Shown piece after piece: positions 1-3,000 of a DNA stretch of 63,589 nucleotides. Source of the stretch: a plasmid; the NCBI RefSeq assembly GCF_055900595.2, contig NZ_PP320290.1, one strand, 5' to 3'. Each line of letters opens with the position of its first letter. Position 1 is the first letter of the stretch. The position numbers are program-made.

Positions 1-3000
1 GTGCAGGGGCTGGTGAATCAAAAGAATCCATACCTACAGCTTTCTGACATTGAGTCAGTAGAAGGTCTTTCGCCGGAGTTCATCTCCTGGCTTGAAAGCC
101 AGTCCCCTAAAGAATCGCCCCTGCAGCTGCTTCTCGATGAAGGCACCAAGCCCGTGCGCAAAACCCGCCGTCGTCGCGGTACGCACTCAACGGCGTGTCT
201 CTGCCCGGAGCCCAGCTGGTACCGACCGGACAATTTCAAAAAGCTCCCTGGCCAGCTTGGCCATGCCTACAACCGCCTTGTTCGCCGCGATCGCAAAACG
301 GGCGCGTTAAGTCTGCGTATGCGGATCAGCCGCCACCCGTACTTCGTGCAGCTGCGCGAGCAGGCTGGCCGGAAGCGCGACTTCCGCCCGGAGCGGGAGA
401 AATTACTCGATGCGATTGTGCCGCTCCTGGTCAGCACCGTTGACCGGGCTACCCATATCGACACTATCAACCTCAGTAAAATGGCGTGGCAGCTCAGCGA
501 AAAGGACAGCGAAGGGAACGTGATCCGGAAAGTGACGGTACCGCGGGTTTGCCGGCTGCTGCAGCACATGATGGAATTCGGGTTACTGGCGCTGCCTGAA
601 GGCGTCACATGGGACCCGTTTAACCGCAAGTGGTTCCCCAAGCATGTCGTGCTGACGGAACGCCTCTGGAAGATGATCGGTGTTGATCTCGATAAGCTGT
701 ATGCGGAGCAGGCCGAACAGGTGGCCGCTGAAGCTGCAGGCTGGATAACCCGTGATGAACATGGCCAGGCGGAAGAAATCTCTGTTAAAGCCGCGCGCCG
801 GCGCTGGTATGAAAAAATGATGCACGCCACGCTGGTTCGCCGGCGTGAAGCCGCCCTGAAGGGTAAGCGCGAGAAGAAGCTGAAAGCGCTGGCAGAACAG
901 CCCTATGACGACCGGGCTTACGCCATGTCCGTTCATCTGATACGGACGCTGCCGAAAGACGAACTGCACGCGCTGTCGCCTGAGCAGTTTACCCAGCGAG
1001 TACGCAGCCACCTGTATCAGCTCGATCTGGGGCTGGAGAGGGAATCCGGTCCCCCTGATTATCACTGATTTTCTCCCCCTGTAATTCTCTTACCGCCGCC
1101 TGGCGGTTTTCGTGCTCGCCAGCCGGCGCGACCTGCTCAAATTTCCTCCAGTTTTAACGTGTGGCCATCGTGATTTTTTGACGTTCTGGCGCCGCCGGTG
1201 GATAACCGGCAGCGAGATCACCACTATCCACAGTTATCCGCAAAGGAGGAAATAAAGTCACCTGCAATCGTGGTCAAAGCAAGCTGCAATACACTCTTAA
1301 CTTCTTTAAAAAGATGTTTATTCAATAAAGAGATCACTGTTATTCAGGCTCAATTTTCTGTGGATTATGGGAATATGCCTGGCCTTTCAGCGCCGCTACG
1401 CGGCACGACGGCCAGAATGGTCGCTATGCTCCCAGGTTAGCACCCGGCAAATGCCGGGCAGGGTGGCCAGCAGAAACCACCACTGTAGATTTTTCTTTGC
1501 CCCACCGTGCTTTTCCCCGCCGAGCCAACGGCTCGGCAGAAAAAAGCATGATGGATGATGTAACTAAGAACACCCCCGTAAGACGGAAGGGCTGCGACCC
1601 GCACCCCTGACGTCAACGCTACTACCCACGCGCCCGGTGCGCCGCTAACGTCACACCGCCCGCTCGCAGTAGCCAGGGGGTAATGTGGCCACAGCGTCAC
1701 CTGCAGGGCAGTCAGGCAGGAAAATCATCTGCTATGGCGTGCAATGCCTTTCAGGCAATCAACGCCAGTGTCTGCTGTCAGTTTTAAAATTAACAGGGAA
1801 AAGAGGATCGATTTAGCCGCGGTTATCCACGTCAGCCGCTCGCAGGCGCGTTAAAAAGGGTGAAGGCAGGGGAATGTTGCTCTTTTTGCAGTGAAGGCCA
1901 CAGAGAGCGTTTCAGGCGCTTATTTGAGGAAATGCGATTTCTGCCAGGGTGGAGGCACAAAAAAACCCGACTGGTGAGATCGGGTTTTCATGTTTTGCCC
2001 CGGATGGAGGCGGGAACACCTAAACAATTGACGGTTAAATATTACGCCATGAGTGCAGTAAATGCAAACCACCGGGAATAGGGTATACTGCGCGGGTCAA
2101 TCTGTTGACGTTCTTCTCCAGCCCCCGCTTACGCGGCGTGAACGGTTTAAAGCCCTGGTTGAAAAACAGGTGGTGCTGTTTCAATGCCCTGGCTGGAGTG
2201 GGAACATCTAAACAATTGACGTGAGGTAGCCGCTGTGACAGGCAATGTAAGGGCGATCAGCGGTGTTCCTGCTCTGTATGGAGCAAACGGATGATTAACT
2301 TGTTAATCGTCGTTCTGCGGGCAGTTGTTGCAGTGTCTAACGCTGTGATAGCGGTCCTGGAGCTGATCCGGCAGTATTTTGACTGACCGGAAACGTAACT
2401 AAAGGCGGGGGGACCACTCCCCGCCTTTTAACAGGGTTACATCTCGATCATCGGGAACAGATCGTCTTCCTGGTGGTAAAGCACGTCGTCCGTTTCCGTT
2501 CCATCAAGCCATTCAGCGAACAGTTCAAACAGGCACACCGACATTTCCTCCGGTGAAATTGCGCCACACTGCAGCTCGTAGAAGACCTCAATTTTTTCCA
2601 GCAGGCTGTTGGCCGCTTTGTCGTAGCCGAACAGCTTGATCGGCGGGAATCGCATTGCATCCGGGTTGGTTTCCGCCAGTTCATCATCCTTGCGTTCCGG
2701 ATAAATGCTGTACAGCGTTGCCGGCGATGGCGGCAATACCTCGATAAAGCGGTTTATCCGCATCGGCAGTTCGCTGGAAAACTTCTCATTGTCCGGAATG
2801 TAAAACGCGGCGCTGCGTACCAGGGCATCCTGGAAAGAAATTACCCCCTGACCTTCGGTCTGCTTACGTAGCTCACGAATGTTCACGCGGTCCTTTTCAC
2901 GGATTTGGTACAGATCCCCTTCCCGGACCGTTTTGGAAAACGTGCCGTGTTCGGCTTCCTGCCCGGAGAGCTCAGAATAATAATCCTGGCCGACGGTTTC

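Follow-up and report, generated by a model that had tools for sequence, protein, structure and literature searches.

The repeat pair and the small hydrophobic ORF found together near the start of this plasmid are components of one type I toxin-antitoxin unit, which has already been published for pOXA-48. We are close to certain that the region 1959-2432 of the window (the whole stretch of DNA analysed, 63,589 bp) is the agrB-dqlB plasmid addiction module of a pOXA-48-type IncL plasmid. The window itself is identified as such a plasmid by sequence: pOXA-48 plasmids are 100% identical to it, and their RefSeq annotation calls the 31-aa ORF dqlB. The repA gene ends at 1068, and trbC, a 695-aa ORF annotated as TrbC in the identical RefSeq records, lies on the minus strand at 2437-4524. 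At the sequence level the region holds what a type I system requires, a small hydrophobic toxin ORF and a separate RNA with extended complementarity to its mRNA.

The same locus, in the same plasmid family and between repA and trbC, was described by Baffert et al., Nat Commun 2025 (PMC12365149). Type I function of the module, namely toxicity, neutralisation by base pairing and killing on plasmid loss, is reported from the experiments of that work, with CRISPRi support from another study (PMC12361523). DqlB of pOXA-48 is toxic and agrB supplied in trans rescues the cells; the rescue is lost with a 4-nt agrB mismatch and restored with the compensatory UTR change (PMC12365149). As for post-segregational killing, agrB alone rescues cells after CRISPR curing of pOXA-48, and Tn-seq pointed to essentiality, with agrB and its promoter free of insertions (PMC12365149). 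CRISPRi guides against agrB are strongly depleted (PMC12361523). The sequence-only reading had named absence from close relatives, together with lack of a transcript or phenotype, as what would speak against its repeats; 957 plasmid records carry the module region at 95% identity or more, and the phenotype is published (PMC12365149).

The repeat pair and the agrB gene

Repeat 1 (1996-2034, plus strand) reads TGCCCCGGATGGAGGCGGGAACACCTAAACAATTGACGG, exactly as first noted. Repeat 2 was rightly placed to start at 2185, with its end off by one, since the 39-letter string given for it covers 2185-2223. The spacing of 189 bp holds for the full repeats, start to start, whereas the 22-nt core GGGAACAYCTAAACAATTGACG, located at 2012-2033 and 2200-2221, is spaced by 188 nt, a 1-nt indel accounting for the difference. 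With up to 3 mismatches allowed, the core occurs exactly twice in the window, against a chance expectation of 0 (a match in 0/100 dinucleotide-preserving shuffles). Gapped alignment extends the similarity to ~41-44 nt (1991-2033 vs 2177-2221).

The repeat exists because agrB begins with a ~43-nt copy of a section of the dqlB 5' UTR, transcribed from the opposite strand. In the DNA the two copies share one orientation, as direct repeats, but transcription runs through them in opposite directions, and the RNAs are therefore complementary. The minus strand of repeat 1 encodes the agrB 5' targeting region (agrB nt 1-43 = 2032-1990), which is thus complementary to positions +81 to +126 of the dqlB mRNA. 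The earlier suggestion that the repeats could be small-RNA genes stands for repeat 1, being the 5' targeting part of the minus-strand agrB, and fails for repeat 2, which is the target in the dqlB 5' UTR.

The agrB antitoxin small-RNA gene (~74 nt, 1959-2032, minus strand) was delineated with the covariance model R1 and by alignment, which has the RNA begin at ~2032 and end within the U-run 1959-1965. For model R1 we used 15 agrA/agrB sequences, taken from other plasmid groups and from E. coli K-12 but not from IncL/M/N, and the model's sole significant match in the window is 1960-2032 on the minus strand, full length, with 40.6 bits and E=5.7e-6. AgrB homology in the broad sense is hence seen as a match to a clade-excluded model at the syntenic position and on the same strand. 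The only other match of the model, 21120-21179 on the minus strand (E=2.2), shares just the terminator-like hairpin and was rejected. Neither the core search nor model R1 finds a second agr gene elsewhere in the 63.6-kb window. Both E. coli agrA/agrB and the plasmid AgrB genes can be aligned, from promoter to terminator, with the minus strand at 1950-2085.

The Rfam AgrB model (RF02891) matches 1958-2038 on the minus strand over its full length at 18.8 bits (E=3.8), below its gathering score of 40; it gives 42-69 bits in IncX, IncI, IncK and IncF/HI loci, at the same position and strand. Other Rfam matches in the window are MicC (19.5 bits) and OrzO-P (18.2 bits). As all of these matches are sub-threshold, the identity of agrB rests on the comparative alignment and model R1.

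The putative agrB promoter, read from the sequence, occupies 2039-2067 on the minus strand, with the -35 TTGCAT (2067-2062), a 17-nt spacer and the -10 TAATAT (2044-2039). It matches 7 of the 12 consensus positions, and a TTGCAT/TTGCAA -35 with a TAnnAT-type -10 recurs in most of the 19 loci aligned, among them agrA and agrB of E. coli. The predicted fold of the 74-nt RNA ends with an intrinsic terminator (1959-1989, minus strand), whose stem AAAACCCGAUC / GUCGGGUUUU is followed by U7; its loop and 3' arm, CUCACCAGUCGG, are nearly invariant among plasmid agrB genes. The consensus promoter/terminator scan missed the agrB and dqlB promoters, since their hexamer matches fall under its threshold, and it simply did not report the agrB hairpin.

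The dqlB mRNA and its pairing with agrB

The dqlB ORF (2291-2386, plus strand) encodes the 31-aa hydrophobic type I toxin MINLLIVVLRAVVAVSNAVIAVLELIRQYFD and is annotated as dqlB by RefSeq in identical plasmids. The ORF and its SD are as the sequence-only reading described them, with GGAG at 2281-2284, 6 nt upstream of the ATG; the membrane peptide was correctly flagged, and what was missed is its link to the repeats, with which it forms one toxin-antitoxin unit. The product matches NCBIfam NF041473 (DqlB) over profile positions 1-31 of 31 with 73.5 bits (cut-off 35, E=8.7e-21), and scores 19.6 bits with NF041472 (DinQ), under the cut-off of 30; no model in the Pfam search covers the peptide. 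Judged by these profile scores, it belongs to the paralogous DqlB subfamily and is not DinQ itself.

The dqlB mRNA (~337 nt, 2096-2432, plus strand) would start at the +1 placed by alignment with the dinQ +1, which gives a 5' UTR of 2096-2290. Homology to E. coli dinQ and 14 plasmid dql loci runs throughout the 5' UTR, ORF and terminator, where column identity averages 71%. A putative -10 TATACT (2084-2089, plus strand) corresponds in the alignment to the -10 regions of dinQ and the other dql genes. No good match to a -35 is visible upstream of it, and the stretch where one would be expected coincides in part with the opposite-strand -35 of agrB, the promoters being back-to-back. No LexA box CTG-N10-CAG is present between 895 and 3570, and the position aligned with that of dinQ reads TACTGCGCGGGTCAATCTGTT; SOS control of dqlB is predicted to be lost. 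The G+C-rich hairpin terminator at 2401-2430, found by the terminator scan, acts on both strands, ending dqlB on the plus and serving the converging trbC on the minus; it is kept, with compensatory changes, in all dql loci and dinQ.

Three elements of the 5' UTR may form a switch. The 5' 'lock' element of the full-length mRNA (2096-2121, plus strand) pairs with the agrB target site, and in the minimum-free-energy fold 2096-2111 is paired with 2204-2220. Its GUCAAU... mimics the agrB 5' end, and its own 5' end and the target change together across loci: GTCAAT/ATTGAC, GTTAG/CTAAC and GTCAG/CTGAC. The lock counterpart in dinQ is sequence element 1, with its a/a' interaction (PMC5066626). The agrB target site, switch element 2 (+81 to +126, 2176-2221, plus strand), holds repeat 2 (2185-2222), which is homologous to the agrB target position in the E. 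coli dinQ 5' UTR. The anti-SD (about 2261-2275) and the SD GGAG (2281-2284) form a small predicted hairpin (2261-2284, plus strand), which co-varies across loci. In the predicted fold of the 5'-processed mRNA, which begins at 2146, the anti-SD is paired to 2195-2209 and releases the SD; P(unpaired) of the SD is then 0.60, compared with 0.00 in the full-length fold, with the +1 and the processing site both placed by alignment only.

RNAduplex predicts 41 bp and -63.7 kcal/mol for agrB nt 1-43 with the target site, where 35-nt complementarity between agrB and the dqlB 5' UTR has been described (PMC12365149). We examined co-variation in 15 divergent plasmid loci and E. coli dinQ/agrB, and each divergent locus carries its own matched repeat pair. 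The mean duplex energy is -63.5 kcal/mol for cognate and -41.3 for non-cognate pairs; of the 22 nt at the agrB 5' end, 20-22 are paired in duplexes with the cognate UTR, and non-cognate pairs average 16.4. When the two copies are compared, G·U-compatible transitions outnumber the others by 35:9, a bias whose binomial p-value overstates independence because the loci are related. Three of the 4 substitutions between the pOXA-48 copies are G·U. Such divergence, matched within the locus and biased to G·U, is the pattern expected of RNA pairing and not of a shared protein site.

This pattern bears directly on the earlier proposals that the repeats are regulator binding sites or origin-associated repeats. 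We consider it extremely improbable that they are iteron-like or operator-like protein-binding sites tied to IncL replication or trb regulation, even though they lie between oriV/repA and trbC and TTGACG-containing motifs recur nearby (families D1 and D6). Only two copies exist, whereas iterons or origin repeats would be multiple, similarly spaced and of one replicon. The same architecture accompanies dqlB in IncN, IncX1/3/4/5, IncI, IncK and IncF/HI plasmids, with unrelated replicons and neighbours, and the repeat sequence varies by lineage while co-varying as an RNA-RNA duplex. The module also moves independently of the IncL oriV: it adjoins ardR in IncN and trbA/excA in IncI, and is present in IncX plasmids. 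Finally, the pairing was confirmed by the published compensatory mutations (PMC12365149). Neither proposal is thus supported.

It is likewise very unlikely, if marginally less so, that both repeats are small-RNA genes, arranged in tandem on the minus strand like agrA/agrB of the E. coli chromosome. The two tandem agr genes of E. coli K-12 are indeed direct repeats, and the minus strand after repeat 2 shows a weak hairpin and T-run (AAACAGCACCACCTGTTTTT), but this hairpin is the invariant mRNA stem-loop CAGGTGGTGCTG read on the opposite strand. The covariance model detects only one agr-like gene in the whole window, and repeat 2, at a position homologous to the agrB target of the dinQ 5' UTR, has neither the conserved TTGCAT-17-TAnnAT promoter nor the CUCACCAGUCGG terminator, which led us to reject it as a minus-strand gene.

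Proposed mechanism and its significance

While homology, complementarity, co-variation and predicted alternative folds come from the present analysis, we infer the transcript ends, the processing site, the involvement of RNase III and the relative RNA half-lives. The alternative folds predicted for dqlB appear to reproduce the dinQ switch, and we suggest that the module likely works by analogy with it. dqlB is transcribed rightwards, from a start predicted at ~2096, and encodes the 31-aa membrane-damaging peptide; agrB, back-to-back with it, is transcribed leftwards from a predicted ~2032 as a ~74-nt non-coding RNA.

Step 1: The full-length mRNA would be inert, as in dinQ, with the 5' end folded onto the target site and the SD sequestered by the anti-SD hairpin.

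Step 2: With the 5' processing near 2146, again by analogy with dinQ, the target site would be freed and capture the anti-SD, thus opening the SD.

Step 3: agrB would occupy the target site, and the anti-SD would go back to the SD, as proposed from dinQ. The agrB-dqlB duplex is probably cut by RNase III, and therefore no toxin would be produced.

Step 4: With the loss of the plasmid, agrB, which presumably decays faster than the toxin mRNA, would disappear and DqlB would kill the cell.

The finding brings no new biology, because the module was published in 2025. OXA-48 carbapenem resistance is carried mainly by pOXA-48, and agrB-dqlB is one of the two addiction systems of that plasmid; the module thus bears on plasmid persistence and on plasmid-curing strategies. 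The matched repeat pair, with an upstream copy of the dqlB 5' UTR target, is a simple signature to find and classify such modules.

We regard it as possible, though somewhat less than probable, that the agrB targeting region and its target have diversified into lineage-specific specificity classes. Candidate classes are IncL/M/N, an IncX1/X4/X5 group, an IncX3 group, several IncI classes and the chromosomal dinQ. If the classes are true, there would be no cross-protection by the antitoxin of a co-resident plasmid or by that of the host chromosome, and each plasmid would keep its own addiction; within one class, IncL and IncN being an example, plasmids could neutralise one another's module. With the pOXA-48 dqlB, IncN/pEL60-type agrB is predicted to form duplexes of -55 to -56 kcal/mol, from which partial protection would be expected, and the IncX, IncI and chromosomal versions duplexes of about -31 to -48 kcal/mol, from which none would be. 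Separately, the IncL/M/N agrB is a shortened structural variant, which the current Rfam AgrB model misses and RefSeq leaves without annotation, the practical point being that this gene escapes Rfam-based annotation.

Comparison with known systems

Biologically the module does not differ from the published DqlB-agrB of pOXA-48 (PMC12365149). To that description we add the coordinates proposed for promoters, RNA ends, lock, anti-SD and SD, a longer predicted duplex (41 bp) and the cross-plasmid co-variation statistics. The addition is small, and consists in an IncL/M/N agrB that is a shortened variant, with one agr copy and no LexA box.

For E. coli dinQ-agrA/agrB we refer to Weel-Sneve 2013 (PMC3567139) and Kristiansen 2016 (PMC5066626). 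The mRNA is homologous throughout (5' UTR, ORF and terminator) and so is the sRNA; the divergent back-to-back layout and the position of the target in the UTR are the same, and mutually exclusive SD-gating structures are predicted in both. However, the toxin is of the DqlB subfamily with 31 aa, compared with the 27 aa of DinQ, and there is one agr gene instead of the two in tandem (agrA and agrB), with the first agrB stem-loop ~12-15 nt shorter. Unlike the chromosomal dinQ, the module is plasmid-borne, acts in post-segregational killing and has no CTG-N10-CAG LexA box near the promoter.

The agrB-dqlB of the IncX3 plasmid pOXA-484 (PMC12317039) is of the same family and is a validated toxin-antitoxin and plasmid-stability module. 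Its agrB exceeds the Rfam AgrB threshold (47.8 bits, L010), and its targeting sequence is unlike that of pOXA-48. The cross-duplex predicted between the IncX3 agrB and the pOXA-48 dqlB is weak (-41.6 vs -63.7 kcal/mol).

Like hok/sok of plasmid R1, the module is a type I addiction system carried by a plasmid. As proposed here for dqlB, the toxin mRNA of hok/sok is inert at full length owing to a 5'-3' fold-back and is activated by processing, and a short antisense RNA silences it, triggering RNase III cleavage. The sequences and toxin families are, however, unrelated. Sok overlaps its target in cis and works via the mok leader ORF, whereas agrB is encoded in trans, as a separate copy of the target, and activation proceeds by 3' processing in hok/sok and by 5' processing in the dinQ type.

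Direct repeats, peptide ORF and plasmid background

Two direct repeats flagged by the sequence-only reading are confirmed here. Repeat 1 (1996-2034) agrees with the sequence described; repeat 2 starts at 2185 as described, but its end coordinate was off by one, as the 39-letter string given for it ends at 2223. The ungapped core GGGAACAYCTAAACAATTGACG is located at 2012-2033 and 2200-2221 (offset 188 nt). Even when up to three mismatches are allowed, the 63,589-bp window contains these two copies and no others, and the core has no match in any of 100 dinucleotide-preserving shuffles. 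Gapped alignment of the repeats extends the similarity to ~41-44 nt. The ORF dqlB (2291-2386, + strand), with the SD GGAG at 2281-2284 upstream of its ATG, encodes MINLLIVVLRAVVAVSNAVIAVLELIRQYFD. The peptide and both repeats belong to one module, in which the peptide acts as toxin. The proposal that the repeats are small-RNA genes holds for repeat 1 and fails for repeat 2, which is the mRNA target of that RNA.

Between repA and trbC, 1.38 kb of sequence match many pOXA-48-type IncL plasmids, NC_019154 among them, at 100% identity, and 957 PLSDB records contain this stretch at ≥95% identity. RefSeq names the ORF ‘dqlB: DinQ-like type I toxin DqlB’. It scores 73.5 bits against the NCBIfam DqlB model NF041473 (cut-off 35) and 19.6 bits against the DinQ model NF041472, under the cut-off of 30; Pfam has no model for the peptide. 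dqlB was found in 99.3% of IncL plasmids (PMC12365149).

The agrB-dqlB system is already known and validated by experiment on this plasmid. The dql family, plasmid members included, was defined by Kristiansen et al. 2016 (PMC5066626), and exactly this pOXA-48 locus was studied by Baffert et al. 2025, who reported a 35-nt agrB/dqlB complementarity, DqlB toxicity with ghost cells and rescue by agrB in trans (PMC12365149). In the same work a 4-nt mismatch in agrB abolished the rescue and a compensatory UTR change restored it, agrB alone rescued cells from the killing after CRISPR curing of pOXA-48, and no Tn insertions in agrB were recovered (PMC12365149). Silencing of agrB was deleterious in a CRISPRi screen (PMC12361523), and an IncX3 homologue has been validated (PMC12317039). 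The minor residues beyond this are the agrB annotation gap and the suggested specificity classes.

The agrB gene and the dqlB mRNA

On the minus strand we read a putative promoter with the -35 TTGCAT (2067-2062) and, 17 nt apart, the -10 TAATAT (2044-2039); together with the strong hairpin AAAACCCGAUCUCACCAGUCGGGUUUU and a seven-U run (1965-1959) on this strand, it frames repeat 1. Rfam AgrB (RF02891) gives a weak full-length match in the window, 18.8 bits against a gathering score of 40. For comparison we used 16 divergent dqlB plasmid loci (IncN, IncX1/3/4/5, IncI, IncK, IncF/HI and pEL60) and the E. coli K-12 dinQ-agrA-agrB region. All non-IncL/M/N plasmid loci carry Rfam AgrB at 42-69 bits each, just upstream of dqlB on the opposite strand. 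In the alignment the -35 and -10 are common to the pOXA-48 minus strand and the compared agr sequences, the 5′ region varies and the terminator is almost invariant. In the IncL/M/N clade the first stem-loop is shortened by ~12-15 nt, and for this reason agrB of the clade misses the Rfam threshold. Our own covariance model, built from 15 agrA/agrB sequences with the IncL/M/N clade left out, matches the window significantly at one place only, 1960-2032 (-), full length, with 40.6 bits and E=5.7e-6. Repeat 1 is therefore the targeting portion at the 5′ end of agrB, which is present as a single gene. The model finds no agrA-like second copy in the window. Of the two genes, dqlB alone is annotated in RefSeq E. 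coli records of this plasmid, where the agrB ncRNA (1959-2067, -) is absent; this gap affects the whole IncL/M/N plasmid clade. A terminator-like hairpin at 21120-21179 (-), AAGGAGCCCUUCCUCACCAGUUGGGCUCCUU, has the loop motif CCUCACCAGU in common with the agrB terminator; its covariance-model match is below significance (13.1 bits, E=2.2).

The plus strand at ~2086-2440 aligns end to end with E. coli dinQ and 14 plasmid dql loci, including -10, 5′ UTR, ORF and terminator, with a mean column identity of 71%. Anchored on dinQ numbering, with its ‘G5-A40’ variable region and ‘+44’ processed form (PMC5066626), the alignment places the putative dqlB -10 TATACT at 2084-2089, the +1 at ~2096 and the counterpart of the +44 processing site at ~2146. 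On this numbering repeat 2 (2185-2222) lies at +90 to +127, which is the homologous counterpart of the site that agrB targets in dinQ. The putative agrB and dqlB starts (2032 and 2096) are back to back, ~64 nt apart, compared with ~81 nt between E. coli dinQ and agrA and ~55 nt in one IncI locus, and the expected place of the dqlB -35 is taken by that of agrB. The two promoters may be coupled or competing.

Pairing of agrB with dqlB and the proposed switch

Since agrB and dqlB are transcribed divergently, the direct DNA repeat yields complementary RNAs. RNAduplex pairs agrB nt 1-43 with dqlB +81 to +126 (2176-2221) over 41 bp at -63.7 kcal/mol; the pOXA-48 copies differ by four substitutions, three of which are C-to-T changes giving G·U pairs and one a true mismatch. 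In each divergent locus the best match of the dqlB 5′ UTR elsewhere in the locus is a same-strand copy within the agrB gene, the UTR copy being between -110 and -70 as counted from the ATG, and the repeat sequence varies between lineages while being matched inside each locus. Mean duplex energy is -63.5 kcal/mol for cognate agrB:UTR pairs versus -41.3 kcal/mol for non-cognate ones, and 20-22 of the first 22 nt of agrB are paired with the cognate UTR versus a non-cognate mean of 16.4. G·U-compatible transitions between copies prevail 35 to 9, with a nominal p of 1e-4 that overstates independence, the loci being related. In the E. coli control AgrB:dinQ reaches -69.4 kcal/mol versus -53.9 kcal/mol for AgrA:dinQ; to our knowledge, dinQ repression has been reported for AgrB only. 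This comparative pattern is the signature of a selected RNA-RNA interaction and differs from that of a protein-binding site common to the loci. We also suggest that agrB/dqlB pairs may be divided into specificity classes.

Predicted folds of the dqlB mRNA reproduce the dinQ switch. In the full-length RNA (2096-2432) the 5′ end (2096-2111) is predicted to pair with the target (2204-2220) and the anti-SD (2271-2275) with 2280-2284, so that the SD is closed (P(unpaired) 0.00). For the processed RNA starting at 2146, the prediction is that the anti-SD region (2261-2275) is captured by the left half of the target (2195-2209), with the SD at P(unpaired) 0.60. Binding of agrB to 2176-2221 would free the anti-SD to return onto the SD. 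The mRNA 5′ end resembles that of agrB, and from locus to locus it varies in step with the target site (GTCAAT/ATTGAC, GTTAG/CTAAC, GTCAG/CTGAC). The transcript ends, processing step, RNase III cleavage and differential RNA stability we infer by analogy from the dinQ literature.

Variant modules, other features of the window and comparison with dinQ-agrAB

At 1110-1353 of an IncK2/Z plasmid (L015, NZ_CP100501.1) the locus resembles a deletion between both direct repeats: an agrB-type copy is joined directly to the distal dqlB 5′ UTR, the dqlB promoter is missing, the agrB promoter is replaced, and the ORF, at 27 aa, has lost 12 nt in frame. It is probably a decayed module, and it shows that the repeats are able to recombine. 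The whole agrB-dqlB module is in tandem duplication in an IncR/IncX1 plasmid (L005, 312-807 and 974-1463) and an IncI-gamma/K1 plasmid (L007, 278-767 and 1007-1451), each with two AgrB matches and two dqlB ORFs. Two IncI plasmids (L008, 218-525; L009, 224-531) carry a hok/sok module (Rfam sok, 134 bits) adjoining trbA, a few hundred bases from agrB-dqlB; therefore, two type I addiction modules are clustered there.

Elsewhere in the window, a UmuD/MucA-like ORF of 144 aa (14872-15306) is preceded, at a distance of 18 nt, by a LexA-box-like palindrome CTGTATGTATAAACAG (14839-14854) and followed by a 434-aa putative Y-family polymerase ORF (15255-16559), with a PemK-like ORF (14315-14779) just upstream. 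With these identities read from translations, the arrangement resembles an SOS-regulated operon of the usual mucAB type. Downstream of repA, the presumed oriV region (1210-1240, 1502-1554, 1814-1828) contains an inverted repeat of 25 nt (1502-1554) and DnaA-box-like TTATCCAC motifs, TATCCACAGTTATCC (1225-1239) and TAGCCGCGGTTATCC (1814-1828).

Unlike dinQ-agrAB, the pOXA-48 module is on a plasmid and has an addiction role, its toxin is of the DqlB subfamily, and it has one agr gene instead of two. The pOXA-48 agrB stem-loop is shorter than its chromosomal counterparts, and the CTG-N10-CAG LexA box is not found near the dqlB promoter.
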